A stretch of DNA of 44,843 bases from Catajapyx aquilonaris (GCA_000934665.2 KZ538845.1:1-44843), one strand, 5' to 3'. Positions 3,689 to 34,900 are shown, numbered from the stretch's first letter. Numbers and translations are program-made. Notes: a model not told the origin generated them from the sequence alone.

Positions 3689-3836
3689 CAAGGAGGTAAT
3701 CACTTCGGTACTCCGGTGTACACCTGGGAGTGGTACTCCCTGGTACTCCTCAGGCACCTCACTCTTTATTACTCCGTGGTACTCCTTGAATTTGGTACTC
3801 CAGTGTACACTTTTCAGTCGAGTGATTACCCCCTTG
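3689..3836. mobile_element. 148-bp MITE with 8-bp TSD (hAT/P-type)
   Basis: TIRs CAAGGAGGTAATCACT / AGTGATTACCCCCTTG; flanks CAAACATT / CAAACGTT; internal GGTACTCC repeats. Confidence 0.75.
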
Positions 3837-4166
3837 CAAACGTTATAACATCATAAGTTAGTGCTGAGACTGATGACCGTTGGAAGGCAAAACTGCCACA
3901 GTGCCACTATTAGTAGTGCAGGTGACACATTCGGAAAGGCACTGAAGAGTTGAGACACAATTCAGGCCCTTTCTTTGACACAGAAAAATATGAAAGGAGC
4001 TCATGTGTGTCCAAATTACACCAGCAGGTGCCAAACCTCATACCGTTCTTGTTGGAAGCAGAATTGAAAACAAGTGTTGGTAGCAAGCTTTTTTGGACGA
4101 ATTCGACCCCGCCGATTTCTAAAATCTATGTTAGCACCCGGGAATTTGGATCCTTATGCCCCCCCC

Positions 4167-4183
4167 NNNNNNNNNNNNNNNNN
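4167..4183. other. Assembly gap (17 N) within poly-C
   Basis: N run flanked by C homopolymers; single Ns also occur in poly-G at 36864 and 41286. Confidence 0.95.
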
Positions 4184-11323: not shown

Positions 11324-12144
11324 TACTGTAGGGGAGACAAGGACAAAGCAGACCACCAGGACAAAGTGAACAACAGGCATTTGTTTAAAAGTACAGAAAG
11401 TGACTGTTGTATATGTAAATGACGCAGGTTTATGCACATTAAGTCGGTGTCTCTAGTGAGAAGGTTAAAACCCTCGCGAGCCTTAAATCCATTTTATAGT
11501 TTTTTCACACTTTCGTCACATCATAAACAAAAACTATCCATAAGTCATGTTCTCTCGTCAAATTAAACACGTAATATTAAGAGTGAAAGTTCTCTTATTG
11601 ACTAGGGAAATCATTTTGACACCCACAATGATGTCTCAGAAACCACTGATCCATGCGTATTCCTCCTTTATGTCATACTCTTAGTACTCGGCACTACAAC
11701 AATGGAAATATGATATTACCGTAGGCCATGGTACCCCAACACAGAATCAGTGAATCGCGTAAAGTTAAACAGGGACGATTTTATAATGGTACCAAAACAA
11801 ATGAATTAACTATTACAGATATCTAGCACGTCATGAAATATCTGTCTCTTAGGTGCGAACGTACAGGTGCGAAAGGACTTTACCTTATACACTTGATGGG
11901 GTCAAGCGTACCGTTAGTGCTGACCTGTATGTACTGTATATGTAAATATATATTTAATAATATACAAAGTACTGAATACAACTGCACCAGTGTAATTTAA
12001 ATATAGTTTTTAGAAGAAGAGATCCCTCACTCCGAAATGCCCATTAAATTCTAATGCCACTCTACAATACATTGACAGAAAAATCATTTAACTGGCATAA
12101 TATTATTATGTGGTCCGCCGCTTTCTTCGGCCTCCCCTACAGTA
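11324..12144. mobile_element. Non-autonomous TA-flanked DNA transposon
   Basis: TACTGTAGGGGAG...GACCAC at left; GTGGTCC...CTCCCCTACAGTA at right (inverted). Confidence 0.6.
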
Positions 12145-12158
12145 TGTATACAGTAGGC

Positions 12159-12235
12159 TACACTACTGGGAAAAAATAGCCTGGTACCCCGGCGCTGCTT
12201 TGCCGGGATACCATACTATTTTTCCCAGTAGTGTA
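12159..12235. mobile_element. 77-bp hairpin MITE with CACTA ends, TA-flanked
   Basis: TA|CACTACTGGGAAAAAATAG...CTATTTTTCCCAGTAGTG|TA; arms of about 34 bp pair nearly completely. Confidence 0.75.
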
Positions 12236-13558
12236 TTGTACAGTGCTACGTAGCAGGCAGGGACAAAATAATGTTTGACGTGTACAACGAAGACGCCTCA
12301 ACATATCGTGATTGCCAGTCCGCAAAATAGTGTTCTCAAAAATATGTTGTCAGGCTAATGTTGGAAGCTTTCAATGAAGAGCGATGCATGGCATTTATAG
12401 GCTTCATGTATTTTTTTTTCTTTCTTATGTTGTCCCCAAATCTCCCGGAGGAGCATCAGGATATGTAAAGGAACAGAGGTATATAACGGACCAAACAACT
12501 ATAACATCAAGCTGACAATATAACAGCACTGTAATGGGTTGTTGAATGTCAATTCCATTCATTTAAAATGTCGTGAAATAAAACACGGTTGCAATCAAAT
12601 CAGTTTGGTCAAATAATAGTCTTTTGATTTACAAATTGGTAACTAATACTTCACATGACGTCAATGAGACGGAAATCGAATAAGTCGCAGGAATCACATA
12701 TTGTGCAACCACGCTCTTTTACACGCATATTAAATACTAATTTTATTTTCATCTAATCATATGAAGAGCGTAGATCGTACAGTGGTAATAGGTACTATGC
12801 AGCAACGTTGGTAGTTCCATTTTTGGCAGTCTGCAGTCGTGGACTGTTTGACTTTTAAAAAATCTACTCTTCCTTGCGCAGCAGACTTATTATTTTGTAT
12901 GAGTTTTACAAAAGCGCATATGAAATCCGATTTATGCCTCTTTCCAGTTTGATACTACGCAATCTTATGCGCAGAGAGGCAGAGTACACATAAAATGCTA
13001 CTGCCAAGTTGCAAAAAATGGTACTTCAAACGTTTTTTTTTTTGCATAATACACCTCATCTTCACCTTCCGTGCAAAATGAGGCTGCATTCGCCTTTCCT
13101 TTTTTGGTATATATTTTCATTAAATTGCGTTATCCGGGAAAGAAGGTCCACTCTCTAACTAAAGCTCTGCTAATTTTTTGTTGGAAGAACGTCATGAGCA
13201 AGAAAATGAGGCCTTCCACATATACCCATCCCTCCACTTCCTCTGTGAAATAAAACTAACATATATATTAACTGTACCGGTACATAAATCGATGCAGGTA
13301 ATAATTACCCGGAAAAGACATTAGCGACTTTGTCACTTCCTTTGCCCAGCAGTAACCCTTATCGGTTTGAGATGTCATGTCTCTCATCAGAAGACGCGGT
13401 TCCCATGTGACTTAGTCGCAAAATAAAATATTGGCAGACAGATACATAAAATGATGATTGGGGAATATCTGCGTGTTTCGGACTACAGCCTTGTTGGGTT
13501 TTACAGCAAAAGAAAGCCATAAATAACGAATGGATGAAAGGAAAAGTGGGTGATTTTC

Positions 13559-13866
13559 TTATGGCCTGGCATGGACCGGAGTGGTCTCTTCGGGGCTTGG
13601 GGAATCGTCTCTTCGAGACTTGATACGGACCACGTGAGGTCCGGAGGAGGTGCTGCCAGATACATTTCCGCGTCCGGATACTGGTTCGTCCATATGCTGG
13701 GTGTATTTGGGACCTAGAGAACCTGGAGCCTGCAACCTCATCTTCTCTGGATCCAACGACTGCTCGTCGGCCCTCAGGAGGAAGAAGGTGCCAAAATTTA
13801 GCTGAGGGATGTCGTAGAAGACCGTCAGTGCCAGCATCATGAACGTCAGGCCGACCATGAGATAGC
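13559..13866 (-). CDS. K2P channel (TWIK/KCNK1-like), shared last exon: TM4 and C-tail
   Basis: Acceptor TTGCAG|GC (phase 1); (G)YLMVGLTFMMLALTVFYDIPQLNFG...; TAA at 13561-13559. Confidence 0.88.
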
Positions 13867-14433
13867 CTGCAATTGAACATGAAAATTGATATGTGACTTG
13901 CTGTGCCATGCTTCTCATAACCCTGAAGGTCTTGTCGATGCGACACCGGATTTCATAATATTTATTTTCCTATCGCAACAAGGACAAGCAGAGCAATGTT
14001 TGTTTGGGTTCTTCCCAGTCATATATACGTACGTGTGACACGTGACGCTGGCGTATAGTAACGCAGTACTAAAGGCGCGTTTGCACAACCACACATGTGT
14101 GATTCTGGGTCCGATAAGACACGCTTCATGCTGCAGATTGGAGGGATTTGTTGACGAAAAACTGTAAACCAATGCAGACTGCCTGCGTAGCTTGCCCTAA
14201 ACTTTAAAAGGTGCTTTACGGTACTCGGTTCTGCTACATGCAACATGTCATGCTCTTTGCACCTCGCCTGTGTCATAAAAGCTTTGAAAATGGTACAAGC
14301 CTAATCTAAACAAATTATGACCAAAGAAGTATACTGTTATCTATCGACCTTAGGCGATTGTATAATAACGCAGGTTTCCAGTTTTGACTCCTTCGTAAGC
14401 AAAAGGTAAAGTCGTCTTGAAACAGCAACTTAC

Positions 14434-14832
14434 CTGTGATGCAGACTTTGTAAAGTGGCCTGTACGGCTGGTTGGACGAATCTCCAGGAATGTAATCACC
14501 AAGTCCGATGGTGGTTAGTGAGATGAAGCAGTAGTAGAACGCATCTAAGTAGTCCCAGTCAGGTTCCAACTGCGTGAAAATAGTCGCCGGCACCAAGAAG
14601 AAGAACCCTCCAACAAGAATGCCCACCAGAGCAAGATGGAACAAACGGATGTTGAAGGGCTGGTACAAGTGACCAAGCTTAGAGTTGAGCAGCTGTAGAA
14701 GGAGGGTAGTCGGGATCATCAGGCGTTCTACTAACGCCGTCAACAGGATCAGCGTCAAAGGGATGCCCAGAACGGCGTACACCATGCAGAAGATCTTCCC
14801 TCCGCGTGACAATGGGGTCACGTGGCCATACC
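14434..14832 (-). CDS. K2P channel shared exon: end of P1, TM2, TM3, P2
   Basis: TTTTACAG|GG acceptor and AG|GTAAGT donor; 399 nt, phase 1-1. GYGHVTPLSRGGKIFCMVYAVLGIP...WDYLDAFYYCFISLTTIGLGDYIPG, with the GLG filter typical of TWIK. Confidence 0.95.
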
Positions 14833-14889
14833 CTGTAAAATGTCGGTGTGTCATTGTCTGATTTTCTGTACACTACCAAAAAGGCTCAC

Positions 14890-15030
14890 CGATGGTAGTG
14901 ATGATGGTTCCAGAGAAGAAAAGACTCTGCCCGAAGCTCCAGTTGGGTTCACTGGACACGTTGTGCACCACCGACACTCCCCGATTGTTGGCCTCCACCA
15001 CATCTGCCAAAAGCTCTTCCAGGTCTTCAT
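14890..15030 (-). CDS. K2P channel shared exon: cap helix 2 and P1 pore helix
   Basis: TTTTTGGCAG|AT acceptor and G|GTGAGC donor; 141 nt, phase 1-1. (D)EDLEELLADVVEANNRGVSVVHNVSSEPNWSFGQSLFFSGTIITTI(G). A 57-nt intron follows. Confidence 0.95.
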
Positions 15031-18000
15031 CTGCCAAAAAAATGTTTATGATCATAAGTAATGACACTCATTACTTCACTTCGCAATCAATTTATCCAAC
15101 TGTCACAGTGACAAGTCCCTCCAATAATCATTATTGCTGCGAAAACATAGATATGAAGGGTCAATGTAACAATTTAATATTTCTCATCCTTTCTGGGAAA
15201 GCGTTAGGTACACAATCCCAGTTGAACGACTGCACGATACGGTCATTTGGCACTATCAACCCAACCACATACTCGTGCCAAAGGCCAGTCAGTTGCAACT
15301 AGCCCATATGGATGTTATACTGTATAGTATACTGACGTTGCGAAATGTCTCTATAGCTACTGTACCTTTCCCAGCTTAATTCACGAATATTTTATTACAC
15401 GGTAATGTAATGATAGAGTGCTTTTTGTCATAAGTTCACTATGTTTTTTTCTCTCTCTTTTTTATCGACCGTCTTTTCTGCTAGAGGCTATACTTAGTCC
15501 CACCTACATTAGTCGGTCAGATCGACTTGAAATCAAGTAGTGTCGCGTTGATTCATTAGCAACCGTGACGGAAGAGGACGTGGACAAAGATAACCTCTTT
15601 CTATCGTGCCCTCCCCCACCCACTCAACGCCCCACCCTCGCTTTTTCGCCCCCACTTGCTTCTATCACCCTAGAAACCGTCATGCGTAAGCCATATGGCT
15701 GTACAAAAAGGAAGATAAGCTATATGCCTACATACTACAATCAATATTCTGCACTTCGGTCGGCAGGACCTCTAGATATCATTTTGCATATGCTAATACC
15801 AGTGTTCAAATAATTCAGTGTTGCATGCAACATAGGATCACGATATTTAAAAATGCATGCATTTTATATGGACAGTTTTTTCTTGCTTCTATAAGGACAA
15901 TCATTATTATCATGAAACATGAAGTCACGGATCAGTTCAGGCAAAGGGTAATTAAGACGTTGGAAGCATTATTAACAATGCCGGGGTAACTTTGGAATGA
16001 TCTGAACATCACTGTAGGAGGCCTACTGACGTAAGAATAAAGAAGTTCTCGCCAGTGGTGGATGGCTTCTTTATAATCCAGGAAAAACAATATCGACTGA
16101 AATAACTATAATGTAGTATAGATCATAAACACTGCACCACATTTTTTTTAAATGTTATATGCGTCAGAACATTTGGGGAAAAAACACGCCTGTGAGATGT
16201 CGATGTGGAGCATTTGGGTAAGTGCCATCAGTGATACACCATCACTATGATTAACATTGACATTCAGAGTATTGATGTACTGTACTCACACGAGCAAGTT
16301 ATATAGGCCTACAGTACTGTACTGTACTGGCCCAGCCCATACCTCTGTTGTATGGTTACGCCTACACATTTTGTAGTAGGCCTACCGATATTTAAAAATG
16401 TATCCTATGCTGCTGTAGTCCGCTTTGATGTATTCATGATATTTACCACTCTTGATCCTCGCGAGTATTCAATAATGAACCTCTTAGATTTTTGTTCACC
16501 TTGTACTTGTAATAATGTTTTATGATCCTGTGCTTCACATTAGCCTACTGCAAGAGTGTATAGGCTACAGGTTTTTCCCCGACAACATTCATTTAACAAT
16601 TTTAACCCCATCCTGTATGGCAAATAAAAGTAGGACTCCGTACTACAAAAAGCAGACAACTCGTCACACCATGAAAGGTAGCCCGAAAATGACAGTTTTT
16701 GACTGTCAGGATTATACTGTATATTCATAATGCCGGAAGGGTGCTACAATACAGTTCCCGAGACTGACATTTTAAAGCCAACAGCAGGTTCGCCAGCACG
16801 ATATTTTAATAATATTTTTGCACATTCATTGCGTATGCACCAATCTCATTTCAGACACTTAGGGTAATTACTAATGGAACACACCAAAGGCGGTGAAGTA
16901 TAAATGATTCCTTGATTATAAAAATTGCAACCAAAAAGGGTTAAGGTGCAACTTGTACGAGTTACCCTAACGTATGCGCAAGAAGTTTCGTCACTGAAAT
17001 GAAGTCCTTGACACAGTAAAATAGATATGAAGGCCTGAAATGCAGAACTATCACCGTTAGTCCACTTTTTTGTCAAAATTGAATTAAACATTCTCTAGCA
17101 CAGACAGTCGTAAAAGGATATCCCTTCTGATGGAAAAGTCAGATTTATTATTAAAAAATTACGTACCCCTGGAGATATTTGTGAGAAAAAAAAATCATCA
17201 CATAAGGGATAATGCAATCTTAAATCTTTAAACCCTTATTATCTCGAAATGAGTCAAATGTCACTCTAATCGTTCTGTATTTCAGGTGCAGTGAAAACGT
17301 CACCCTTTAATGCAGCACAGTATTTTAAATGCCTTGTCGGCGTTCAAAGGCCGGTAACCGCATGCGTACGGAATTTTGTGCTTTTTGCGTACACTCAATA
17401 CCTTCAACTCTGTGCCTGTGGCTGACACATAAGTAGGGCCTGTTCCGCAACCTTCATTGACGTCTACACCATTAAGGCGGAGGCATTGTCATTTCCTGCC
17501 TTTACTTATTTTGGGTTACAGGTTGGGCTATATGAAATAGTCGACCAAGTATCCACTCACTGTCAGTCTATAGCAGTGTTATATCCTGCACTTTCCCAAT
17601 TGGAAAGTGCCACTATCGCATGTCACTGCTTTATATTGTGCCTGGGATGCACAAAGGACTTTAAAACTTTAAGAACAACAACAGTGTCATAATTATGTTA
17701 TGACGCTATAGCACACAGCGGAACCCACTCTGTGCTGTTATTAATCTCAATTCAAGAAATAAGCTGATTTCAATCACAACGATTGAGAGGTATCGAGCTG
17801 TATTGATCTTTAATCCCAGCGCAGAAAAATCCATGTCGACCTTGCAAGAGGCATCCAGCTGCCTACCTGCCCAAAAGCCTTGCAGGCCATTGGGATCATA
17901 TGTGATCAGTCCTTGTTAATATGGGGATTAGAATAGTTAAATAAGCTCTTTGTGGGATAGGTCCAGATTGTCTTTAGGTTACAAACAAGACCTATCCGGA

Positions 18001-19086
18001 TCTGTGTGTGCATAATCCTCAAACCTTATCCGATCATGTAGTGCTGAGTCTTTCAAAACCACCTCTGCTTCTTATCAGAATTTATTTTTTTTGCATTAGC
18101 CAGTCCGTGACGTCAACGCGAAACTAACATTTACCACCTTTCCCCGACCACTTTACAATAGATCATATTTTCATATAGTATATTATGCATAATATCCCGC
18201 ATCTGTTGGCAAACTGTAAAAACCATTTTCAGTTACTACTTATATAAGGTCGCATAATTATTTACACTTGGGTGGGCTTAAATAGTTCATAAAAACAAGT
18301 GCACATTATAATAATGTCAGTGCACTGTGCACTGACAAGTGAATGAAATACGTTACCCTTGTGATTCAGGTAGCGATATATCAAGGCCTTTGAGGTACAG
18401 TAAGTAGCAAAAAGGTCGCGGAAAGTAGGGTGCTTTTGCATTATCTCCAAGCAGCTGATCTGAACTGATTATAGAAGTATGTATGTTGTACAGGGGTTAT
18501 TGATAATCATGTGCGTCAAGATAAACCCAAATATTGGAGTACAGTGCCTTCCAAGAATATTGCATACCTACACGACATTACCAGAATAAAATTACTTACA
18601 ATTTGCAATGAATTAATTAATCACTCGGTCACAATTAATTTAAATTACAATGCCAATTTTCTTAGCTCTTGATTTGCAGACACGCTAACCTAACCAATCA
18701 AACGCGTGCAGTACAGTACCAAAAATCGTCGCAAAAAGGGACAAAATGCACAGCTGCCTCAGTTACTGACAGATTCAGAAACAATGTGGTCAACAACAAA
18801 ATAGTTATGCCTGGCAACTTGCGACTAATCCATGTACGTGTCTGGCCGCTTATTTGCAACATAACCTATATGCAAAATTGACCATTATCACATTAATCAT
18901 ATGAACTAAAATATGCGCAGCGCTGTTATCGTCAACACTTTCTAAAAAAATCGTACATTGCAACCAGAAGTAATCAACCTCAAGCATACACTGCATTCTC
19001 TACGCACAATGTTACTGCAATTCCAATAATTGTTCCTCAAAAATATAGAGTAAATCCCTCCCCATTGCTGACCCCATTGTTTCTAC

Positions 19087-19369
19087 CTGAGACACACTCA
19101 TTGCTGTTGAGGAAGAGCAAAATTTTGCTCCTGAGCGCTCTCCGGAAATCATCCTCCAGGTCTGCTTCCAGGGACGTGAACACCAGGCTTCCTACCACTA
19201 AGTAAGCGACGTAAAAGATGACATAGAGCCAGAGTAAGAGGGTACTTCTGCGAATCCAACAGCACCGGGACACATAGTCTTGCTCAGAACTGTTGTCGCT
19301 AACTAGTTCTCCGTGCTCCAGACGAGCAGCGGTTCTTTCATCCGGAATGGCTTGGTACCCAGGAAGCAT
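19087..19369 (-). CDS. K2P channel alternative first exon B (proximal): N-terminus, TM1, cap helix 1
   Basis: AACAAG-ATG at 19369; MLPGYQAIPD...LLLWLYVIFYVAYLVVGSLVFTSLEADLEDDFRRALRSKILLFLNSNECVS; phase-1 donor CAG|GTAGAA. Joined CDS is 1131 nt = 376 aa. Confidence 0.88.
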
Positions 19370-22300
19370 CTTGTTGGCTTGACAGACAGTGACACTCACC
19401 GAACAGGACTGATGCCACAGACGTCCTTTGCAATTCCTTTTCTTTAACACAGCAGCAAGCAGCTCTGGAGGGATTACGGATGAATGGATCCGATTCCAAG
19501 GTACTTAATGATCCCCTTGCAGGCAAAGAGGATTTCCACCACAGGTCTTTTTGAGGAAACTCCTATTCGTCACGTGTCAGGCGAGGTCCACCAGAGATAT
19601 TCTATCACACCTTCCAGCGCTACTCTTTTACAATAGGCTGCCATGACTCCCTTGTCCGTACATGATGCTGTACGACTGCTGTTGAAGTAGTAGTAACTCT
19701 GAATGGCTGCTCTGCCACTGCTCTGATCGTGCCAGCACTTCTAATCTACATGCAGTAGAGTTGGCACCTCTCACAACGAGCCCGAGCGCGTATCTGGCGG
19801 TGACCGGCGATATTGCATATCAGGTGAAGTGCCAGTCCGCACAAGGTCCACCATATGCTGCTATGGCGGCTGAGTGAGGCGAAAGGGAGTGTGGCAACAC
19901 GGGTTTGTTGGAAATCACTCGAACCAAGGGTGACTGGATTGTCACCTCAGCGGCAAAGTTCATCCTAGCTCTTGTGTTGCCAATTTGATCTATAAGACGC
20001 GTGATGATTGGTTCTTGTCTGCATTTTTGGCGCTTCGCCCCATTATTGCAGGGCATGTCCGTGATCCGGGTAGACATTGGTCAAGCTTTCCTAATTTAGT
20101 TTTATGCTGCCGATATCAAGTGCGGAGGCCACAAAGTGTTTCACTGCCGATGATTACGTATTACGGACACGGTAATAGGTGCAATCGACTCATAATTTTT
20201 GTTTAAGTTTGAGTTTAATTTAAGCGCAGTGAGTGCAAAAATATATAAAAAATTTTATTCAGCCCATTATTTTCGGTAGATAAGATCCCGTACACTATAA
20301 TTATCTTGATGTAAAAAGGATTACTTTTATGTGGTGCAAGGGTCCCGAGCTGGCAGGTATTTGCCCCCAAATGTAAATAACTTATCAAGATACCAAATTA
20401 CAATGGGTAGATTGAATAGTGCATATAGATATCAGTCAACAAGATATTCAGTATACTGTAGCCTAGTATAAAATACCGTTCTACCCATGAGTCACTGTTT
20501 CTTCATGTCCAACTGTATAACAGAAGTACACATAAGAATTTGTATGCGCAAAATATGGTACGAAAAATATGGCTGAACGTTGCGTAAGCCACAGTACTTC
20601 AATCCTTTCTCAACCACACACTTATGAGCAAATATAACTATTGAATCATTCCCAATGATTATTTAACATAATATAGCTATACTACATGAAGATAAGGGGT
20701 CATCGCAACGAACAAAAAAAGGAGCTTGCCAATTACACCGCCCTGCTGGACTTGGCCCAAGACCATACAGTTTTTTTTCTGCTGTTGTTGTCGAGTCCTC
20801 TATACGAAATGACCCGTCATGTTAATAGCGTTATAAAATGAACCATCTTGGGCAAGAAAATGTTTCGATGAGGCTCCTCCTGGGCATTTAGTAAACCAGC
20901 ATAAACCAAGTAACTACTATTCTGTAGTACAATGTAATGTGTGTCGGTTTTGCGAGTTTTCTAGGGCACTCCGGGCAGTTAATAAACTAAAATGGATGGT
21001 TCAGTTCCGCCCATTTATGATCGTGCTCCTGGTATATCAGAGGAGCTCAAAGAAAGGCACAGGTCACCAGAGACCCAGCCTGAAATCAAATAGAACATCG
21101 CTCAAAGAAACCTCATCACATACACCGGATTCCATGTGCCAACTGCTGCAAGAGCTGCTCTGATATCTCAATTATTAATCACCTGGTTTTATGCGGTCCC
21201 TGACGTCAATCCTCCTTCATCCTGGATCCATTCATATTTAAAGTCAGCCTGACTGTAACTACCTGCAGGGCAGAGCTTGTTGAAACCCAACAGCCCCTAG
21301 GTGACGGATCTTTTTTGCTCGCTGTAATGAGATGCAACTACTGTGCCGTACTCAGTATGGACATCAACAGCGAGTATTACGGACGTGCTCCAGGGAATAC
21401 GCAGCGAATGACGCATACTATTGCTGTGCAGGGATTCACATCGTATTTATATGCTGATGACATAACCATGGGGCATTGCGCGAGTGATCGCAATGAGTAA
21501 GCATTGTACACCTAATGTTTGTGTGGTCGACATAACTGTTGAAATTGCCCGCATTTTCAGGCCAATATGAACATCTACTGCTTCTGATTATACGCTGTGC
21601 CCACTACCTCCCACACACACTTTCGATCTGTCATTCCGTTCAGCGTTGCCAGGCAAGTAATTTCTATAGGCCTACAGAAGGAGTAATGTCTGAGAGAAAT
21701 ATAGAATCCATTTGGTGGGAACTGAAGGAAGCTCCGCCGAGTGTCTGGCTTCGTCTCTATCTCCATTTTAATCTCGCGTGAGCAGAGCCCATCATTCCTC
21801 AATCAAACCTCAATTTGCGATGGTTCCCCTATTCTCCATGTAATTAAGCCCTTCCTGCAGGTAAATTAATGTTGCAGAAATTGCATCCAGGGTGTCATTG
21901 TCCTAATCAAAAGTACAGACATCCTGAAATGACGTCACTGAGACGAGATGTATCAGGGGACTGTGAATCGATTCCCATGTTCTGGGTCGCACAGTGACGG
22001 CAGTCAAGCACAAGGATTTACGGAGAAACGCCTGCCAAGTGCAATACTACGAACCACCTTCATATCAGACTCAAAATTAGCCTTCTAGACAGTGATTACT
22101 AATTATTCTGACTCGGGAACTGTCCGTGATGGCTGCTGCAGGTTCACTCGGGCTTTCTAAATCAAAATTTGATCAAAGCGGATAGGGAAGCAAGATTCAC
22201 TTTGAAGGTGGTATATGCTTCCATATAGTGCGAATGTAAGTGACAGGTCATATCCGTAAGGTAACCTGTGTTCTGAAAATATACAGAATAGCCTAAAAGG

Positions 22301-24238
22301 ACAGGGCCATTTTGATAGTTAGAGTGCATCCTACGTATTGATTTAGACCAGGACGGTGGTAGCCGAGCTGTGTATATTATTGCCATACCAAGTCTAGTAG
22401 AGCATATAATAATACTTTTGGTCCTAGATTGTCGTCTGCACGTTACGACTCGCACAGCATGCCCGAGAAAAGAATAATTACTTCCCAGGGCAAAGGTTCC
22501 ACACATTTTCTTGAGAAGTTCAAGTGGGGACTGATTTTTAGTTAATAGGGAAGGTGAAGGGAAAGGTCGAAGTTGAGTTCACCTAATCGATAGGGTTCAG
22601 CCTCTCGGCCCCAACATCTCCTTTCACATAGTGGCCTATAGATATTAATTTTCATGAGTGCAAAATAAAGCTGCCTGAGTCAAGTGTCGGACCAGGATTT
22701 TGTGAGTCGCTCAATCGAGTTGGACACTTTTGATGGCTTTCATTCCGAGTGAATAGACAACGCCCGTCATAACATCCCTTCTTGAGTCAGGCCTTGTTGC
22801 AACGACTAGCTACTACATTGTTACTATCTTGACATCTGGATCTGCTGCTTGAACAGTATGCATTAGGAACATTTGCAGAAAGTGTGTTCCATATTAGTCA
22901 TATCACTTTTACAACAAGTGACATGCTAATGAACTGCTACATTTGCATAGGTAGCCAACACGAGATGCTGCTGTAATTAATATTTAACAGTGCACAGTAT
23001 ATAAAAAATATATATTCCATCATGGCTGATTACTTTTGAGCTGTCTACTGTGCATGTCATAACGACATGACAATACGGCAACTAGCACGAATTTTATAAT
23101 TTTTAAATAATATTATTTGGTTTTTATCACAGTCACCAGGACCAAAAAGCCGATGATAAAATCGCATTCCAGTTCTATGATGATGAGCACATAAATTTAA
23201 TAACTCATCCATTAATGACATTCTGACAACACATGGAAGGAGCCGTTCCTTTACTAGCATTTTGTATCAACACACTTTGCACTTTGACATAGAACAAAAC
23301 CCTTAGTATATTTGAAAACCCTCGCATAGAGTCAACAAAACAAGGGATTGTTATGGAGTCCCGCATATCAGGCAACCAAATAGCACACGCGATGCGTCGT
23401 GCCCTTTGCAATACCTCCCTCTGGGATAGCGTGCAATGTCACTTCTTACAAGGTGCATCTTGGCAACATATTGTCCCATTTCTTGGCTACTTCACGCCAT
23501 CTTATTCTTTCTACTTCCAACGACAAATGCTGTCACAGGAGACCCCTTGTTGTGACCCTTTCTTATCAGCAGAACAAGGTGACCTCCAAAAGAACCGTTT
23601 TGTACTGCACCGGTATACGGACGTACTCACTATTCGCTCCTAGAATCTACCACTCGACACCCCCCCCCCCTCCCCCCTCCCGACGTCCCTTCACCCTCCG
23701 TCCCCCTGCCCCGCAATCAATATGTGGATTTGTTCCATGCGTGCTGCCGCCTTGTGCTAGCATCATGTCATATCCGCCCGCCACTTCTGCACTACATCTG
23801 CACAGAAAAATATGATTCAACATGATTTCACCTGAATGCGGCATAACCTGTAATATTAATTTTAATATCCAGCAGGAGTTGCTGAGATAAGGTTTCGCTC
23901 AGTTGTTTTTTTTCTTCTTCTTCTTCTTTTTTTGACAACCGTGGGTAGATGTAGGCCTAGATTGCAAATGTAACACAACCATGAAAGAGGGGCAATCATT
24001 TCAATTTCAATGTCATTTTGATAATGATCTAGCAGTCTTGGAACATTTTTGTTCAATATTTTAAATATATGAGTTGATCATTGAAGCGCCTGTTGCATTT
24101 GTCTGTGGCGCAATATAGCCTATACTGTATTATGCAAGGAGAAACGTTTGCGAACTGTAACCACATTCAACAATGGGAAGAAACTTAAGGACATTAGTAA
24201 TCTTGAAAAGGCTAATTCCAAAGTCATCTCTTTCAGAG

Positions 24239-24241
<3 letters not shown>

Positions 24242-24279
<38 letters not shown>
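24242..24279. repeat. (AT)n microsatellite
   Basis: About 19 AT units. Confidence 0.95.
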
Positions 24280-24283
<4 letters not shown>

Positions 24284-27200
24284 ACCCATTCTTCGTGACT
24301 GCATCATGAGTAGCTAATCCGTTTGTCAAAATTTTGGGAATAATAATTCGCGATTTAAAATGTTCACAGGATATGTTCTTTGATATATTCACTATTGCTC
24401 TTATCGTATATTTGGATTTTCCCAATATTATTCATATCTGTGTTGTTGTTTTTTGGTCCGTGGATGGCTGGCTATACCTTTCCTCATGGTAATGATTCTG
24501 ATTGACTCCTACAACCAAAATTTTGTCCAAGAAGATAACGCATGTTTATCATAAGTAACGAGAAAATAATAACAGTAAGGCAAGTATCCTATCAGATAAC
24601 ATGATCATCTGATCATACACTTGTGTCGACTTTTAAAAAGTATTATGATATTCATCCGATATCACCCCATTGATAAATGTCCCCAATAACAAGAGGTTAA
24701 TAGGTTAATGCGTCATTCCTCTCGCAATCAAACTAAATGTAAGAAATTGCGCAAACATTGCTTTCAGTATGTCATATTGACTTCTACGTCTATGTTCAAT
24801 GTTTATATATTGTTGGCTACGACTCTACGAGTGGAAGTGGCCAACAATGTACAGGCGTAAGGTACAGTTTCATCTGCCAAGCCAACTGACCAACATCTTA
24901 AAATGCTTCATTTTCAATCCATTCATAGTCGTACTACGTTGGCGAACGCAATCAATTTGAAAGGTCTTTGATTCGGCAACACCGCTTCATCATTATCTTG
25001 GCCGGTGTGGCTGGTGGTATGGCATAGTGAGTTTGGGAGAATGAGAGATAGGATCTTTTTGTACACCTCTGTCAGGACGTCATTGGTCCATTCCATCGTT
25101 CATCAGCAGTGCTGTAATCACTTTTGAAATTTTTATGGGGATAAAAGTAACCAATAATTGAGTGCGTAATTTAAAACATCAAGATTTCGTAATTAGTATG
25201 CCTACATGCGTACAGCAGTCATACCGAAAAAGGGCACATCTCTGCAATTGGGATGAGAACGTTTGGGCAAGACAACTCGATAGAAAACACGACGTCATTG
25301 CAATGTGCAGATGTGCCTTTTTTATATATAGAACCGCTGTACAGTCTGCATTCTTGGCCGAGGCGTCAATGTAAGTGCACCACAAAGTTGTGGCATCGCA
25401 ATTGAAGGACCTTTTGGCAATTAATTTTTTGTTTATTACCTTTCTAAAAGTACGGTAAGCTGCGTTTTCCAGCATTTCCCAATTATCTGGATAACAAGTG
25501 ACCAGAGTTGATCAGAAGGCCTACCCTCATCATTCTTAATTGGCCAAGTGGCCATGGTTGAAGCACTTTTTGTCATACTCTAAGTTCATTGAGGCAAATC
25601 CAATAAGGCTTTTTTTTCATCTCAACTGTGCTTCGAAGTGATATGATGCGGTTTTTACTTCCCAGATTATATTTTTTAATAATTTGTTTTCACATGAAGT
25701 GACTGCATTCTCTCTTATTATACTGCAGGAAATGAGTAACATTCTGTTATTTTCTCCGTTTTCGAAAGGACTGAAAAATATAAAGGAAGGGCCTCGGGCA
25801 AGTTTTGCTCTCTGGGTTTTATGCAAAGTAGGGTTCGGAGTGGAGGAGAAAAGATACATTAAAAAATCCTAGAAGCTTTGATGCGATATGAAGCAGAAAC
25901 CAAACTTAAGAACTTTAATAAGCTAAAGTATTGAACCGCTTCACGTGCCACAATGTAACTTAACTCTATAGGGCTCTAATGTCTAAACTCTAAACTCTAA
26001 AGCATCAAATGGCGCATGCAGAAGTTGCACAGCAATGCTTATAATGGTATGTCTGTATAGCTGTACGATGGGGAATAGTTGTATAAGTAATTATTCCGCG
26101 AATTAATTCTCTGAAAAGACTCATCACTTGACTTGATGTTTTATGTATATAATATTAAAAATTTCCAATTCACATTTTAAATGTAAATTTCATTATTTTT
26201 TTGAAATGATTAGGAAATGAAAATATCAAGAAATTGTATAGCAGAGTACAGTACATGAAAAGTCTACAATGTAGATATTATGACGGAGAAAAAATGTGCG
26301 TCTATCCTGTATACCGTATAGTAGTATTCTAAAATTTTACTATGTCTTATTATGCGAAGAAAATTGCATTTTGGACAAGAAAATATCTCTCTACTGTACA
26401 CACCAAGTGATATTTCCCCACTGAACAAAAAAGCTAACTAGATGGTGCAATTATTTTAAATGTACATCTGAATAAAAAGATAACAAAATAAATATCATCC
26501 TCCGAAAGGTCCAGTACAGATAGGTCTACTGCATAATAATAATACGAAACATGTTCCGAGTTACTTAAAATTCGACTTACATATACCGGTAGCCTACGTA
26601 TTATTGCAGAACTATCCATTTACTTAAGTAGGACACTTATGCTATACGGAACGTTTAGTGAAATACATAGCAACTAAATACAGTATAGCTAGTACAGAAA
26701 ATTTTCGTGTATAGTACGTAATATGAATTTTGCGGTTTCAGCTCACGCAGTCCTATACTGAAGTAATCCTCGGAGTCTTTTTTCAAAGGTGCCACCTGCT
26801 TTTTAAATTAGACTACAGGAAGTATCGCACTCCAAGTGGATACAAAATACGCCACAAGGGAGGCTACGCCCACGAAATATGAAAGGACATTGGACATGCA
26901 ACCTAGTTGGCATTCAGCGTCAGAGGTACCGGTATTTCCATGACGCATGACCTTAAGGTGATAACATTGTAACTATTAAGGTTTAACACTTGTGGTATAA
27001 GTTAATTAAAATTCTGATAGCCTGGTCGTCTATATTAGATTAGCTTTGCATTCCACCTCCGGGATTCCTGAGTTCGATCCTCATATTTCGAATGGAATAA
27101 TTTCAGATGTATAGTAAAAGCATAGCCTACTCGCCCCCCCCCCCTCCCCCGTTTCTTCCCGTGCAAGGTAAATTGTCGGTCAGCTCTACGAAAGATTACA

Positions 27201-28249
27201 TTATTTTAAAATACTGTTTCTTTCTCTTTTTGGTGGGTGCAACATAAAGTAAATGATATATTACAGAGTATTGAAAAATAATAATATCACGACGCGCCAG
27301 AATAGCACAATAACTTCTGGAGAACACTGCGCTGGAAATGTTCCAAGAGCGTGCCAAAATTTATTTGGCAACAGTACAAATAATATTTTGCGAGACAGTG
27401 CTTATATGAGCATAATCGTGAAACAGTAATTCTCCACAACAAGTGGTCCACTTGGGAAGACAGTGCCGTTACTATACAAAATTAATCAAAGCCAAAGATA
27501 AAGCAATAAATAAAAGTAGGCCACTTAATTTGATCTAAAGTGAAGAGTTGAAATTCAGAAGTTTTTGAGAGTTTTGAGAGTTTTTGAGATACGGTATACT
27601 TGAGGCGGATAATCTTCAATTACAATAATCACTCGATTATCCGGACATCGACTAAAATGGACTTCCGCATTTTTTGAACATCCCGTATATGGATCACTTG
27701 AGCAAAAGGACATAAATAATATACTAAACATGAAACTAAGCTACCGCCTACCGATATTCAAGAAAATACGACAATAATCTTCCCGCCTTTAAAAAATTAA
27801 AGTTCGCGGGTTTTACTGATTTCCGGAACAATTTTTCTCTACAAAATTTTGCCGAAATCTTTACAATCAAGCATTACCAAAATATCTTCCGAGAACCCTT
27901 CCGGCTGGCCCCCGCGGAACATCGGTTGAAGGCAGAGGCATGTAAACAACATTGTAAAAACTGTAGTCACCTCAGTTTGCACCAAAATTGCACGAATACT
28001 GTTGCATTTAACAATTATAAGAAAGCCTGCTTCAAGAACTTAAGTTGAGTTATAACAAAAATGCTAATGAGGGAGTAAAAAGATATGCCGCGTTAATAAG
28101 TAGACCCCAATTAGTTCGTCTGAGGAAAGGGCAGGTTTCAGAATTTTTTTTCGTTGTGTGTGTATGACCAAAAAAATTGGTTTCATATCCAACGGATATT
28201 TATATCTATCCGGAAATAATTTTACAAATACGATTACAATAATTCACAC

Positions 28250-29087
28250 TAATGAGATATCCGCTGTTCAAAACCGCTGATTGTAAGAACCTGTCGTTTG
28301 GCTATATAGTTACTGACCCACATTTGTGTGGACATTTTATCGGATTTCATTGTTATAGAAGCAACAACGGATTTGGACGTGAACCAGAGCGTTATAGGAC
28401 GGAGTCGCCGATTTTCCCGCCTCTCGCGCACTGCTAAATTCGTTGTTGTTTCCAACAATGAAATCCGATAAATCTCCTACCACAAATAATGCACCTTGAT
28501 ATGATAACATTGTTGCATGTGTTCCTAGCCCGGTTTCTTCGGCAATGACCAGAACCTCGTACCTGGACAAGCTGGAGAATTACTCTCTGCTCAATCAATT
28601 ACCATCTGGAACTGTCTTCCAGAAAGATGATGTACCACTCCAATGCAGTCCTATGGTGAGGCATCATCTGAATCATGAGTGGCTTGGGAGATTGATCGGC
28701 AGAGGTGGGACAGTTGAGTGCTCTTCTAGTTCGCCACAACTTTAACCCCGCTGGATATTTCTTGTCAGTGGGGTCACATGAAAAAAAAATTATTGCCTAC
28801 CAGGTCAAGGTCAGAAATAACCTTCAGTAGCTGATACCAAGCATGATGTACGCTGTGGCTACGGTTACACCTAACATGCTACAAAACACAACCATGCACT
28901 GTTTCTCGCATGTTTCTTTTGTCGGCCTCCCGGCGCGGCGCGGCGTATCGTGCTTCACATTTAAACTTATTGAGTCAGACATTGGAATAAGCTTTGAACA
29001 TGACAATCCGGAAACGTGTATGACACTATGACAGCCTATATTCAGATGTGATTTTTTAAGTTTTGGGTATAGTAATCATCCACCCTG
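28250..29087 (+). pseudogene. Decayed Tc1/mariner-superfamily transposase with right TIR
   Basis: YLDKLEN..VFQKDDVPLQ..VRHHLNHEWLGRLIGRGG...SPQL resembles the YLDML..FQQDGAPPH..VR..LN..FPGRWIGRGG..WPPRSPDL catalytic region; frameshifts and stops; ends ...CACCCTG at 29087. The left boundary is approximate. Confidence 0.8.
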
Positions 29088-29093
29088 CACACT

Positions 29094-29149
29094 GTCCATG
29101 AGGAGAATAATTATGCCGTACAAGGCATAATTATATTCTCCTCATGGAC
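29094..29149. repeat. Near-perfect hairpin
   Basis: GTCCATGAGGAGAATA-ATTATGCC / GGCATAATTATATTCTCCTCATGGAC, with a 6-nt loop and a 2-nt bulge. Confidence 0.8.
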
Positions 29150-31199
29150 GAGTCAAGTATTCTGATAAACTAACGTTTGAAATAATGAAACATGACGAAA
29201 TTGAAACGGGGACGCGTGTAATGTTACACAATGGAGTGGATGCGCAACAATCGAATACTGAAAATGAAATGTGTATTGATGTGGACATGTGCATAGAATG
29301 GGAAAGAATTTTATGAACATTTTGCAGTGTATTTGCCCTTCTAAACGGAAAATCAAACATGACGTATACCCTGCTTGACACACGTTAAGGTTATTTCGGT
29401 TTCTGATGATTCGTTGTCAACCTCCTCGTGGCTCACGGCAAACTGAAATAATAACTTAATTGATTTGTGCGTTAGAGCACCCAAATCTATTTATATCGTA
29501 CATGCAACATTAGGGCCGATAGTGTGATGCATGTTGACCCATTTTCAAGCCCACAGGGGAGTAGCATATAGTGCTTGCTGTACTGTCCAGTCCATACCAT
29601 CATGTACCACATGCCAAACTAGAACTGGAGTGCTTCTTCGTATTGAGCAAGCTAGCAGTCATCTTGACAATGTAGTTCGCACGGGTACTTAAAGTGGGGG
29701 ACCACTCGCAATGGCCGAATGGGGGCAAAACGCCTTTGGCATAATTATTTATGTAGCGTGGCATTAAGTAGGCTTACATGCAGGTTTCTCTATATGAAAC
29801 GCCAACGCAGTGCAGGCAAAGCATAATACTGCAAATATAATGGTAGACCTATACACTCACGTTATTGACTTTACAATAACATACGGTATGTTTTCATCCA
29901 CCACGAATGTCGTTTTTTGGTGTAAGTTTATGGTTCACTTCAGTCTATCACAGTTATTATTATTAGCCAAAAATACTGTCAATTACTACTTGTATCTATA
30001 CACAGTGAAACCGGAGTCCTGCCACTATCATAGCTCATGCTGACAATGGTTTACAAAAATTGGCTTTGCATTATCAGCTTCAATGATACATGCGTCGCTC
30101 TCAAGCCGAACTGGGCTACTTCCAGTAAAGCTCTTTTCCGAATCATCTGGTGTGAAGTGGTCTGGTGTTTTGCAGGACTTCCCAAGTGCCATAACTCAAT
30201 TTCAAGAGAACATGAACGAGAAATCATTGTCTTGCCTACTCGAGTGACACAAATACTCGCAATCTCGCATTACAGGGCGATCAAAATAATATTAAACAAT
30301 AACTCTGAGCAATATTTTCAGTGTTGTCTCGACCTTATATGTATGTTTAGACTAATAAAAAATGAAGAAATCAATCACCACATTTTAGTAATTAAAAGAT
30401 CGATATTTTAAAAACATTAAAATGAAAATGCAGCTGGTGTAATTGAGACAGTAAGACACAAGTCGCCATTGTATTTACGAATGTCCTTTTTCTAACTCCG
30501 AGAACTAATTACTAAATTTGTATAACATGTACAGTACACTACCGGAAAATACTGATTATTAAATAGCAATGTTGTGGAAATGATGATACTGTAGCCTACT
30601 ACCGGTATAGCATCATCATAAGCTTATTCTATTTGTGGTAATTTTCCGAAAAAACCCCGTTCTTGATCACATTTTTAATTTTTCAGAGTAGGCATACTGT
30701 ATCTATTGTATATCATGTTTGCTGCACGTAGTAGAGTACTCAGTAAAAAATATGTTATTACATTCATATGAGTTCCGTCAGTTTTGTAGGTCAATGTGTT
30801 CCTGTAGGCATGAAGCTGCAGAATTTATGCATTGGCAATATGGCATCGATTGACATCATAATCCGGCCACATTATTATTCGGCTGTTGCAGTATGCAGTG
30901 CATTTCTGCTGCATCCAATATAATTCAATATGTATTATCATTCTCTCTTACCTTTTTAAAAATGCAAACCCACTAACAATGCCGTCAGTGAATTTGTTTG
31001 GTACTGCACCTAAAACAGTCTAATCTAGCCAACTGCTCCATTCTTATCTCTTAAGCTAAACGTACAGTACCGGTATAGGCTACATTATTACAATAAAAGA
31101 TAATAGCATCTCAACCGCTGAAGCCGGAGTGAGCAAAGTAAAACGTGTAGCTCTGTCATAAAATTATGAATGAGGCTGGTTGAAGAACGGTACCGGTAC

Positions 31200-31461
31200 C
31201 TTTAATGCAACTGTGCTTCTGTAGGAAGTTGATCCTGCGGTTCCTCAGCTGCTTGACGTTCTTGGCCTCTGCCGGAGCTTCGATGGCGGAAAATATGGAG
31301 GCCCCGATGACCAGGAAGAGGACATAGAAGGCGGCCAGGAGCAGGAGTCGGCCGTTGCTGCGGCTCATACCGACGACACCTCCTCCGCCTCCGCCGCCGC
31401 CACCGACGCCAGTGCCCCCCGGAAGCACTTTGCGCAGCGAGTCCGCTGTTATGGACACCAT
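31200..31461 (-). CDS. K2P channel alternative first exon A (distal): Gly-rich N-terminus, TM1, cap helix 1
   Basis: GTC-ATG-G at 31461; ...RLLLLAAFYVLFLVIGASIFSAIEAPAEAKNVKQLRNRRINFLQKHSCIK; phase-1 donor AAG|GTACCG; GC-rich codons. Joined CDS is 1110 nt = 369 aa. Confidence 0.9.
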
Positions 31462-31854
31462 GACTCAGCACGAGCAGGGACGGACCTACGGACTCAGTGT
31501 TGACCTACCACCGGCCAACTCGTCCCTTGCTCTACCCGTTAACCCCTGCCTGCTGACGTCGATGTTCCCACCCGACCCCTGCCTACAGGGTACCACTTTC
31601 TTCTGGCTGCTGCCTGCAGCCAGCCTCTGACCAGCACGCCGTGTTCGATATTCCTTGCTTCAACCACCCCGTACGCGCATGTCCCAAACTCTCATTCATA
31701 CTGTCTCCAGTTGCACACCTACGTAAGCCCTACGCTATAGCTTCTGCCTGCTCGTCTTCTCCATTTCATCAGTGGATGAAAGGGGATGGAGAGAATGATG
31801 GAAAATCAAACCCCCACTGCCATTCTGTAGGTTCCGACTGTATAGTCATAGCGA

Positions 31855-31900
31855 TGGTTACGTCAGAAATGGCCAGTGGAACTACGCTCTATTTATAACT
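31855..31900 (-). promoter_or_regulatory. Putative distal K2P core promoter
   Basis: TATAAATA on minus at 31897-31890 (overlapping MEF2-like CTATTTATAA) and CRE-like TTACGTCA at 31858-31865, at the edge of the GC-rich 5'-UTR region. Confidence 0.4.
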
Positions 31901-34900
31901 CGCGCATTAAAAAAAAATATCCTGGACAACCACAACCCTCATAACAGGAGCACTTGGTTTTTTAATATTATATGCTTGCTTGCCTCATTCCATTCTGGGC
32001 AACCTCAGAGTCTAGTTTTGCTTGTAACACTGCTCAAAATAAGAGAATGCTGTATGTTTGTGACACGGATTGTTTTCTATGTAATTCTCATTACGCTAGT
32101 AGCGCATTTACGAGTAAAAATATGTTTTACGAGCAACATCGGCCTACCTAGTATCACGGGTAGGCCTATAGAGTAGGGCGGTCCATTGTCATAGCAGGTT
32201 GTAATACCAGATAGGGTCAATTAAGTATATGAGAACTAATGGATCCGATTTCTATTTGACTGTGTGGCCCAATAGGCATCGATGGTTTTTCCCCCCGTCA
32301 AATAGAAATTGGATATACATTCGGAATCCGAGATTCTTATTGAGACCCGCGCTGGTGCAACCGGCTCTGAGTTGCATACGTGTAAATATTCATCTAACCT
32401 CTACCCAAATTTAATCTCTACCCAAAAGACAGACCCAGGTCATCAGGTCCCACTCTGTATAAGGGCGTACGTGGCATCCTGTTTGTTGTTCCATCACCGA
32501 CCAACAACCACTGCTACTGGGTAGCCCGGGGTAGTCTGACGCGCAGGACTTGCTCTGCCATATGTTAATCTTACTATTAGATCGTATATAGTCTAACAAG
32601 AATTAATACAAGATTATATGAGATATTATGGCAAAAGTAGGTTAATTTTGTATCGGAACATCGTAAAGACTATATACCGCCACTGCATAAGACCGAGATG
32701 AAGTACGAACCGTCATGAACGCGATGAACTGTACCGGTATATAGGCCTTCTGCATATCGTATTATATCGTAGGACACGTACCGTAAATATCAAAATAAAA
32801 GGCCCACATTCCTATCAATGAAAATTGGCCACTCCTGCACCCTATAGTGTACAGTACAGTACAGCACAGTATACACGACGCGTATATAGTAGAAGCCCCG
32901 TACACTACGCTCATCTCCTCTATTTTGCAGTCAGGAGGGCCAACGCGACCTCTTGAGCGGCTCTGAGCTGAATTATTTTACATATGGTATTTTTAAAACT
33001 ATGTGCAGTTTAAAGGGAATAACACGTGAACGTGCTATTCTTCGAGATATTTGTTGCCAAAACCATTTATTTGAATATTGCTTATAATATTAGGCAAATA
33101 CTGTAGCATCAATACTGTATTCAGTTAGCCTAAACAAAAGTTATAATATGGATAATCCGTGTATGCTTATTTTTCTCATGAAAACCTTTTGTCACTTTTC
33201 TCGAGATAGCTCAAAAATGGCACTAAAGCAAACGATACTGTGATAATGTTGAAACATAAGAATGTGCTACGAGTTATTCACAGTATAGACTATTGTTTGT
33301 TCTGGGAGAGATTTGGGTTGTTAGTCGTCACTTATAATGATAGATGAAACTGGCCTTCAATGAGATGATTTCAGTAAGAGCTTCGATCCACTATACTATA
33401 TTTGGGAATGCGTCAGTTTCTGGGTGTGGGAATCCACAGATTCTCTATCCCAAACAGAGCCTGATGCGGCCTGATGTTTGAGGGTGTGTTGTGCAAAATA
33501 CACATGCCCACCGAAAACATTTCATGAACTACAGTCCTAGAGCATTATTTATGACACAAGAAACATGTTGTAGGCTACCTGACACTGGCTGTTTTATACT
33601 CGTATCTGATTTTTGTCAGAGACACTATATGTATTTTGAACTGCTTAGCCCAAACCCTTAATGTGACTTAAGTCAGTCGGAGTATACCGGTAGGTCTTGA
33701 ACGATTATAATGATACATACCGCAACTGCACACGCGTACATACAAGCACACTACCTTGCTGAACGTGGCCTCTAAACATGCACATGCATGTTATCTCACC
33801 CCTTGTCGACTTCATATCCGCTAACGTTTCCTAATTCCGTCATACGATATCTGCGGTCACATAGACTTTGCAGTTCATCTGAAGGATTAAACAGAGTTTG
33901 GGAGTCTGAAAGTATATGCATGTGCAGGGAAATAAAAATATGCATCATTCTGAAGGCCTACTACTCGTATTTCACTATTTTCTGCAGAATGATGTAGTCT
34001 TCCATATTTTATCGAGGGGTGGTACTGATGTAGGCTACTGTACTTACAACATTTCAACAAAACATATATTTTCCCCCTTCAAATTACCTCTATCAAGCAA
34101 TACCTTTTTAAATGATTTCGCAGGTGCATCATTTTGATAGCCTTTTGAAGCAGTTTTTGTATTCAAATTTTTGCTTCAAGTGGCACAAGCAAATGGATAT
34201 GTTTATAGGTGCCTCAGTTTGCAAGACGTGTTTTTATCTTTATTTTCAACTTCAGGTGTAATTTCTTGATTATAAAGATATTACCGAATTGTAAAATACC
34301 GTAGACCTACTAATAAAATCCTGTAAAGTTACGTATGCCTCATAGGCAATCCTCAACGCCATATAAACATGTTTTCACCTTAAGGTGCCTTCATTGGTTC
34401 TTTTGCCACCCCCCCCCCCCTCAAGATACTGTACAGTATACCACCAACTCAGTTGACTCCTGCTGCTGCGACAGCCATACTCACAGTCATAGGCAGAGAA
34501 GAGCATATATTTTTTCATGTAATGGTACAGTACTACGTAAAAGGACATGTGGGACCCCTGACTTATTCCGGGCGGAAAGAGACCTTGGCCTCTCATGTCT
34601 TTTTTGCAAAGATAACAATCATTGGCAAGTGAGTTAGCCAGATGGCGGAAGAGTCATGGCTGAAGAAAGTGACCGCTTCTGACATGGATCACGACCTGGA
34701 TATAGAAGATTAAAAGTGGCGGCTCACCATTAAAAGGCCCCATTAAACTTCAATTTCGTTACTTTTGTATGGATAGTAAAATGCACGTAACAAATTAATG
34801 ACCAGGTAAGTAGGCCCTAATGCCACTACGGAAGGTAATTAAAACCTGCGGCTGCCCTGCCAGTAACCTTTCATTTCAGACTACTTGTAGCCTACATGGA

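Follow-up and report, generated by a model that had tools for sequence, protein, structure and literature searches.

In a stretch of genomic DNA of Catajapyx aquilonaris comprising 44,843 nucleotides (nt) (GCA_000934665.2 KZ538845.1:1-44843; the whole stretch is referred to as the window), we found what is, at a probability of roughly 0.8, one TWIK-type gene of the two-pore-domain potassium (K2P) channel family with two alternative first coding exons (exons A and B) and three constant exons, all on the minus strand. K2P channels set the resting potential and excitability; they are dimeric, and in the structures of TWIK-1 and TRAAK their first transmembrane helix (TM1 or M1) and cap make the subunit interface. 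In the proposed mechanism, each first exon would bring its own start codon, cytosolic N-terminus, TM1, first cap helix (cap helix 1) and cysteine at the cap apex. Each transcript would carry only one of the two, A or B, joined in phase 1 to a common acceptor at position 15030, and the pore of the two products would be identical.

The coding part of exon A occupies 31461..31200 (262 nt; Met1-Lys87 plus 1 nt) and encodes a Gly-rich N-terminus, TM1 (FYVLFLVIGASIFSAIE), cap helix 1 and the apex Cys (HSCIK). The coding part of exon B occupies 19369..19087 (283 nt; Met1-Ser94 plus 1 nt), inside intron 1 of the A transcript (31199..15031; 16,169 nt), and encodes an N-terminus with RRST directly before TM1, TM1 (FYVAYLVVGSLVFTSLE), cap helix 1 and the apex Cys (NECVS). 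Both exons start with ATG, have lengths of 3n+1 nt, end in phase 1 and are followed by GT donors (AAAG/GTACCG for exon A and TCAG/GTAGAA for exon B). With either of them the single acceptor at 15030 (TTTTTTGGCAG/AT) forms a GAT (Asp) codon, and both spliced frames are open, giving products of 369 amino acids (aa) for A and 376 aa for B; the B transcript would remove 15031-19086. Constant exon 2 (15030-14890) encodes cap helix 2, pore helix 1 and the start of the first selectivity filter (..TTIG), constant exon 3 (14832-14434) encodes the rest of filter 1 (GYGH), M2, M3, pore helix 2 and filter 2 (TIGLGD), and the coding part of constant exon 4 (13866-13559) encodes M4, the cytosolic C-terminus and the TAA stop codon. 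The intron that follows exon 2 interrupts the codon for the first Gly of the GYG filter. An initial annotation of this DNA had already given the coordinates, peptides and phases of these exons, the shared acceptor and the two product lengths, all of which proved correct when we read the sequence and translated the spliced frames. Its statement that there is only one set of pore exons also agrees with our results, as tblastn searches of the window with both isoforms returned a single set and no second one. Compared within the window by tblastn, exons A and B were 35% identical over 55 aa (E ~5e-8).

The RNA evidence came from one public run (run X1), available as contigs only, in which a third (0.33) of the sampled words of 13300-15100 matched and whose contigs were compared with the window over 12100-32000. 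This run has no RNA label on record, and its contigs were taken as RNA-type because they are spliced. A 294-nt contig matched 31441-31200 and then 15030-14979, skipping 16,169 nt with CT..AC ends, i.e., GT..AG on the gene strand. This joint shows the use of exon A, with splicing in RNA to the acceptor at 15030. Another contig, of 4662 nt, matched 14563-14433, skipped to 13865 and then continued without mismatch to 12100, the edge of the compared stretch, which confirms the predicted joint between exons 3 and 4. The same contig covers 13558..12100 of the 3' untranslated region (UTR), and its length suggests that the 3' UTR is probably about 4.2 kb long and ends near 9335, with AATAAA signals at 9396 and 9288. 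Overall, the contigs cover exon A, parts of exons 2 and 3, exon 4 and the UTR. It should be noted that at 31261 an X1 contig has A where the window has C (plus strand), which changes AAG (Lys67) to AAT (Asn) in cap helix 1 of exon A; with a contig depth of 4.1, this difference may be an error or an allele.

Judged by its sequence, the constant part is clearly TWIK-like and nearest to KCNK1 and KCNK6 among the K2P subfamilies. It has two K+ filter signatures per subunit, TIGYGH (P1) across the exon 2/3 junction and TIGLGD (P2) in exon 3. Exon 3 matched the Pfam family Ion_trans_2 in two stretches (E 8.8e-21), and the 46-aa piece encoded by exon 2 matched the same family only below the cut-off (E 6.5e-4). 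Among solved structures, the best matches to exon 3 were KCNK1 (E 3.6e-38, 134 bits) and KCNK6 (~7e-37, 130 bits), followed by KCNK9 (E 1.4e-22; KCNK9/KCNK3 at ~83 bits) and by TREK/TRAAK (55-68 bits). Human TWIK-1 (KCNK1) and TWIK-2 (KCNK6), with the structures 3UKM, 7SK0, 9OTA and 9E94, are the best relatives of the constant part and have the same GLGD in P2.

Each of the first exons is predicted to contain M1 and cap helix 1 with an apex Cys, and the protein from cap helix 2 onward is constant. Exon B aligned with residues 18-71 of TWIK-1, i.e., M1 and cap helix 1 (E 1.4e-4, 25.5 bits), and its Cys92 fell on position 69 of the full-length TWIK-1 chain 7SK0_A. Cys69 of TWIK-1 is the cap-apex Cys that forms the inter-subunit disulfide. 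Exon A aligned with residues 16-79 of TRAAK, likewise M1 and cap helix 1 (E 3.5e-8), with its Cys85 on the cap Cys of TRAAK ('..hpcv'). A cap-apex Cys is found in most K2Ps, not in all, and is predicted in both exons of the window. With these short pieces as queries, TRAAK (KCNK4) was the best structure for exon A of the window, for the A exon of Cryptotermes and for a termite-type B exon (P0011), and only exon B of the window matched TWIK-1 best, a difference that may mean little, as queries of this length are too short for assignment to a subfamily. We also considered that exon A had been borrowed from a TRAAK/TREK-type gene and that exon B was the TWIK-type original; this idea was dropped, given that the B exon of P0011 and the A exon of Cryptotermes are both most similar to TRAAK.

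The same arrangement was found in other arthropods. A search with exon 3 collected 429 longer proteins at E <=1e-20, and names and identities were taken from the 120 of them that were listed. These 120 relatives were nearly all from arthropods, those with names were mostly called 'potassium channel subfamily K member 1(-like)' or '6-like', and many were X1/X2 isoforms of one gene. The best exon-3 identity among the matches listed was 80%, which indicates that Catajapyx itself is not among the collected proteins. When isoforms of the same species were compared by their longest identical C-terminal stretch, all 11 pairs shared an identical C-terminal part of 249-276 aa and differed only upstream of it. 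The pairs came from a planthopper (Nilaparvata), a spittlebug (Clastoptera), six beetles (Tribolium, Anoplophora, Harmonia, Coccinella, Leptinotarsa and Henosepilachna), a barnacle (Pollicipes), a termite (Cryptotermes secundus X3/X2) and a cockroach (Periplaneta americana X3/X2). In 10 of the 11 pairs, the common part begins at D-x-x-L-E, which is the start of exon 2 in the window; in Tribolium it begins six residues earlier. Each pair consists of one A-type and one non-A isoform with differing N-terminus, TM1 and cap helix 1, and the upstream parts of paired isoforms are 29-42% identical, compared with 36% for A vs. B of the window.

Similar relationships were observed across species and in partial sequences. 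In ticks, for which there was no same-species pair, an A-type protein of Rhipicephalus appendiculatus and X1 of R. microplus are 100% identical over a constant part of 243 aa and 36% identical in their first-exon parts. Decapod pairs across genera have constant parts that are 87-95% identical and first-exon parts that are 36-44% identical. Full-length A-type and non-A proteins are both encoded on contigs of 1.8-3.5 kb, which, being so short, must be transcripts, and a partial krill protein (P0026) has a non-A first exon joined to an exon-2-like sequence. The isoform pairs annotated as K member 1/6-like in arthropods, such as X1/X2 of Nilaparvata lugens, X2/X3 of Cryptotermes secundus, X1-X3 of Periplaneta americana, X1/X2 of Tribolium castaneum and X1/X2 of Pollicipes pollicipes, thus have the layout of the window gene, with the same exon-1/exon-2 boundary and the same two first-exon classes, and are orthologous to it (70-80% identity in exon 3); they are automatic gene models that are known here from their proteins, not from genomic exon order. 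The two-first-exon layout is as old as the arthropods, going back to the ancestor that chelicerates and pancrustaceans share, if not further. Together with the RNA joint from 31200 to 15030, the 11 of 11 isoform pairs support the proposal of the initial annotation that this is one gene whose first exons exchange the N-terminus, TM1 and cap. Its suggestion of an old and selected duplication is strengthened by the occurrence of the layout in ticks, a barnacle and insects. The novelty that it implied was overstated, as RefSeq holds X1/X2 isoforms of this kind for many arthropods.

To compare the first exons themselves, 163 first-exon segments were gathered, six of which had truncated or misplaced boundaries and were dropped (P0059, P0063, P0130, P0156, P0038 and P0033). 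In the resulting tree of 157 rows and 62 columns, many forks of which were unresolved, the A-type exons formed a clade of 50 rows with a support of 83 in the Shimodaira-Hasegawa-like approximate likelihood ratio test (SH-aLRT). This clade includes spiders, a scorpion, ticks, horseshoe crabs, decapods, a barnacle, a millipede and insects, and exon A of the window lies within it, beside rows of termite, stick insect, locust and hemipterans (SH-aLRT 89). Profiles were built from 49 A rows and 105 non-A rows, excluding the window. Exon A of the window scored 98.5 bits with the A profile (members 85.5-112.5, not scored by leave-one-out) and 69.6 bits with the non-A profile, and exon B scored 41.7 bits with the A profile and 83.6 bits with the non-A profile (members 50.8-100.6, median 84.4, likewise not leave-one-out). 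Exon B was also used as a phmmer query against 1.84 billion representatives; of the 52 matches at E <=1e-3, most were exon-sized open frames of 70-190 aa, with the aligned part ending at query residue 93-94, i.e., at the exon boundary. A word-based search among the longer proteins returned no match for exon B and one match for exon A, the A-type protein P0001.

The two classes also differ in their motifs. The sequence RR[ST][STN] stands directly before TM1, at its cytosolic end, in 62 of 106 non-A exons and in 1 of 49 A exons, as well as in exon B of the window (RRST); RRxS/T followed by a hydrophobic residue may be read as a consensus of basophilic kinases (PKA-type). The A-type exons have the consensus FY.LFLV.GA.IFSAIE.P.E, which is very conserved across arthropods. 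Of the A-type exons, 44 of 49 have a cap-apex Cys, vs. 62 of 106 non-A exons, and in Harmonia, Coccinella, Anoplophora, Leptinotarsa and Henosepilachna it is found in the A isoform and not in the other isoform; several beetle non-A exons thus lack the Cys, unlike both exons of the window. Exon A of the window is typical of the A-type, and exon B is typical of the RRS[ST] type. An N-terminal motif, Y-x-x-I-(P)-D-E-R, that exon B of the window shares with three exon-sized matches was set aside as too rare, with only 3 occurrences among 106 non-A sequences. A 662-aa protein of the nemertean Lineus longissimus (P0054) consists of two tandem, near-identical K2P units, each with a first-exon part of CRRST type, and both units score higher with the non-A profile than with the A profile. 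This single data point hints that the RRS[ST] type may be the older one and that the A-type came later.

Several observations weigh against the reading of one gene with two alternative first coding exons, which presumes that exon B is used in Catajapyx aquilonaris. Neither coverage of exon B nor a junction from 19087 to 15030 was found in the X1 contigs, a result that, coming from one small run of contigs only, we regard as neutral; of the two junctions by which the initial annotation could be checked, the one from exon A was seen and the one from exon B was not seen. In the tree, exon B lies outside the A clade and the main insect B clade, in a polytomy with non-A exons of horseshoe crabs and ticks (support 73), and its end branch is 0.58 long vs. 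0.34 for exon A. It also lacks the Pro of E-x-P after TM1, which is present in 95 of 106 non-A exons, and has EADLE where its arthropod relatives have E-x-P-x-E. The RNA evidence over exon A only, the missing Pro and the longer end branch would all be expected if exon B were a recently silenced relic that had not yet acquired disabling mutations, with only the 369-aa A isoform being made. We consider such a relic quite improbable. Exon B retains an intact ATG, open frame (94 codons), GT donor and phase, and its score with the non-A profile is close to the median of the functional members. Moreover, B-type exons evolve faster than A-type exons in all species compared, and B-B identity is 36-49% in other species pairs whose constant parts are 74-78% identical. 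Exon B of the window is 47% identical to the B exon of the termite, 47% to that of Nilaparvata, 44% to that of Schistocerca and 41% to that of Clastoptera, while the reference values for termite/Anoplophora and Schistocerca/Anoplophora are 49 and 44%, respectively. These identities are within the range of the other pairs, so exon B is not an outlier, and its divergence is like that between species with annotations of both isoforms. Any exon retained from before the split of chelicerates and pancrustaceans must, in addition, have been under selection until very recently.

Other observations of this kind concern the promoters. In the proposed mechanism, each first exon would have a separate promoter, and candidate 5' UTR/promoter regions, predicted from a raised GC content over ~700 nt upstream of each exon, would lie on the minus strand at 31462..32200 for exon A (GC 0.48) and at 19370..20100 for exon B (GC 0.50), the median over the window being 0.397. 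For neither exon did we see a transcription start, a promoter element or a 5' UTR, and the ratio of observed to expected CpG, used as a promoter mark, was not raised at either of them. A consensus-like donor (G/GTGAGT) at 19394-19400 on the minus strand, 25 nt upstream of the ATG of exon B, is also unexplained; it may have arisen by chance or be the end of a non-coding leader exon. It is conceivable, though in our view unlikely, that there are not two promoters and that A and B are mutually exclusive exons spliced from one shared upstream promoter and a non-coding leader. The lack of an observed transcription start for either exon leaves room for this arrangement, as does the 294-nt contig, which begins at 31441, within the coding part of exon A. 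Furthermore, the open frame of exon B, 155 codons in all, extends 45 codons upstream of the ATG, so an acceptor there would be possible. The arrangement fits less well with the start codons, as the ATG of each exon is its first in-frame ATG (that of exon B being the first after a stop), and with the presence of a separate GC-raised stretch upstream of each exon. If the ATG of exon A stood upstream on the same transcript, translation would normally begin there, and the RefSeq models of other species start the isoforms at different first coding exons, as judged from their coding parts and not from their 5' ends.

The searches for pore exons and first exons covered the 44.8-kb window only, and three runs of N occur in it. 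A separate K2P gene could therefore begin with exon B and have its pore exons beyond the window, or exon B could be placed by misassembly, although we think either very improbable. A transcript of such a separate gene that started at exon B would have to skip the same-strand exons 2-4 and a UTR of ~4 kb, and no K2P-like exon was found at 1-13 kb. The N runs, at 4167-4183 (an assembly gap of 17 N), 36864 and 41286, are all outside 13.5-31.5 kb. In addition, A-type and B-type exons lead into one and the same constant part in 11 of 11 species pairs. Within the window, tblastn with the 163 first-exon segments of other species gave matches at E <1e-3 only at 19.1 and 31.2 kb, so that no third first exon was detected. 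A 33-aa match at 30407-30505 in this search, with an E value of exactly 0.001 (26.9 bits), was taken as chance, and an exon-A-like match on the plus strand at 3747-3842 (E 0.06) was at chance level with other queries (E ~0.5). No direct or inverted repeats of at least 60 nt were found in intron 1, which indicates, at the level of DNA, that the duplication is old.

With one gene and two first exons as the preferred reading, it may be asked what the exchange is for. The dimer interface is made by TM1 and the cap, which also roof the extracellular ion pathway; hence the two exons, as cassettes, could alter assembly without altering the pore. The proposed functional difference between the isoforms would concern the dimer interface, the cap, control by kinases and the formation of AB heterodimers. 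As a tentative suggestion, in which we place rather less than even confidence, two cassettes of TM1 and cap helix 1 may have been kept throughout arthropod history, the A cassette nearly frozen and the B cassette evolving faster and carrying RRxS/T, such that the same pore would be given different partners (AA, BB or AB), cap chemistry, trafficking or kinase control. The persistence of the exchange across ticks, barnacles and insects suggests that the two subunit forms differ in function and that this difference was selected, and AA, BB and AB channels are conceivable.

Alternative first exons have precedents in other ion channels. TREK-2 (KCNK10), with its a, b and c forms, and other vertebrate K2Ps have alternative first exons, as the window gene does. 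To our knowledge, these vertebrate variants alter only the cytosolic N-terminus and leave TM1 and the cap constant, and we know of only a single first coding exon in vertebrate KCNK1 and KCNK6. A closer likeness in design is offered by ASIC1a and ASIC1b, in which alternative 5' exons swap the N-terminus together with the first transmembrane helix and a portion of the extracellular domain, resulting in different gating and in co-assembly of the two forms. The likeness to the window gene is in design only, as ASIC is a trimeric channel of the ENaC/DEG type with an unrelated fold. Among the solved structures, a PDB entry is listed as 'Isoform B of KCNK10.' In C. elegans, the isoforms a, b and c of twk-40 have isoform-specific upstream exons, and separate promoter fragments drive different expression and behavior; the 393-aa TWK-40a is contained whole in b and c, and the alternative exons add only a cytosolic N-terminal extension, according to the published account (PMC9049526). 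TM1 and the cap are not exchanged in twk-40, in contrast to those of the window gene. In the extracts that a full-text search of the literature provided, an exchange of TM1 and the cap through first exons of a K2P gene was not described.

The window gene is one more case of an arthropod-wide structure that is already present in automatic annotation, and for the window this amounts to a sound annotation of a gene that is conserved and ordinary. The ancient swap of TM1 and cap seems, from the literature searched, not to have been studied. It concerns the membrane and cap helices that build the dimer interface, whereas the isoform diversity of vertebrate K2Ps is thought to be confined to the cytosolic ends. 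It is of relevance to channel physiology and to the use of arthropod K2Ps as targets of pesticides and acaricides.

Some further features of the window were noticed. The N-terminus encoded by exon A includes a run of nine glycines (a GGN repeat at ~31375-31405 on the minus strand) that has no counterpart in the A-type exons seen in other species. Intron 1 contains simple repeats at 23898-23940 and 24232-24286, the latter of which is TA-rich and has frames that read as YI runs. An open frame at 1364-1702 on the minus strand matches the FERM N-terminal domain (PF09379, E 4.1e-8) and is probably an exon of a neighboring FERM-domain gene that has the same orientation as the K2P gene and lies downstream of it.

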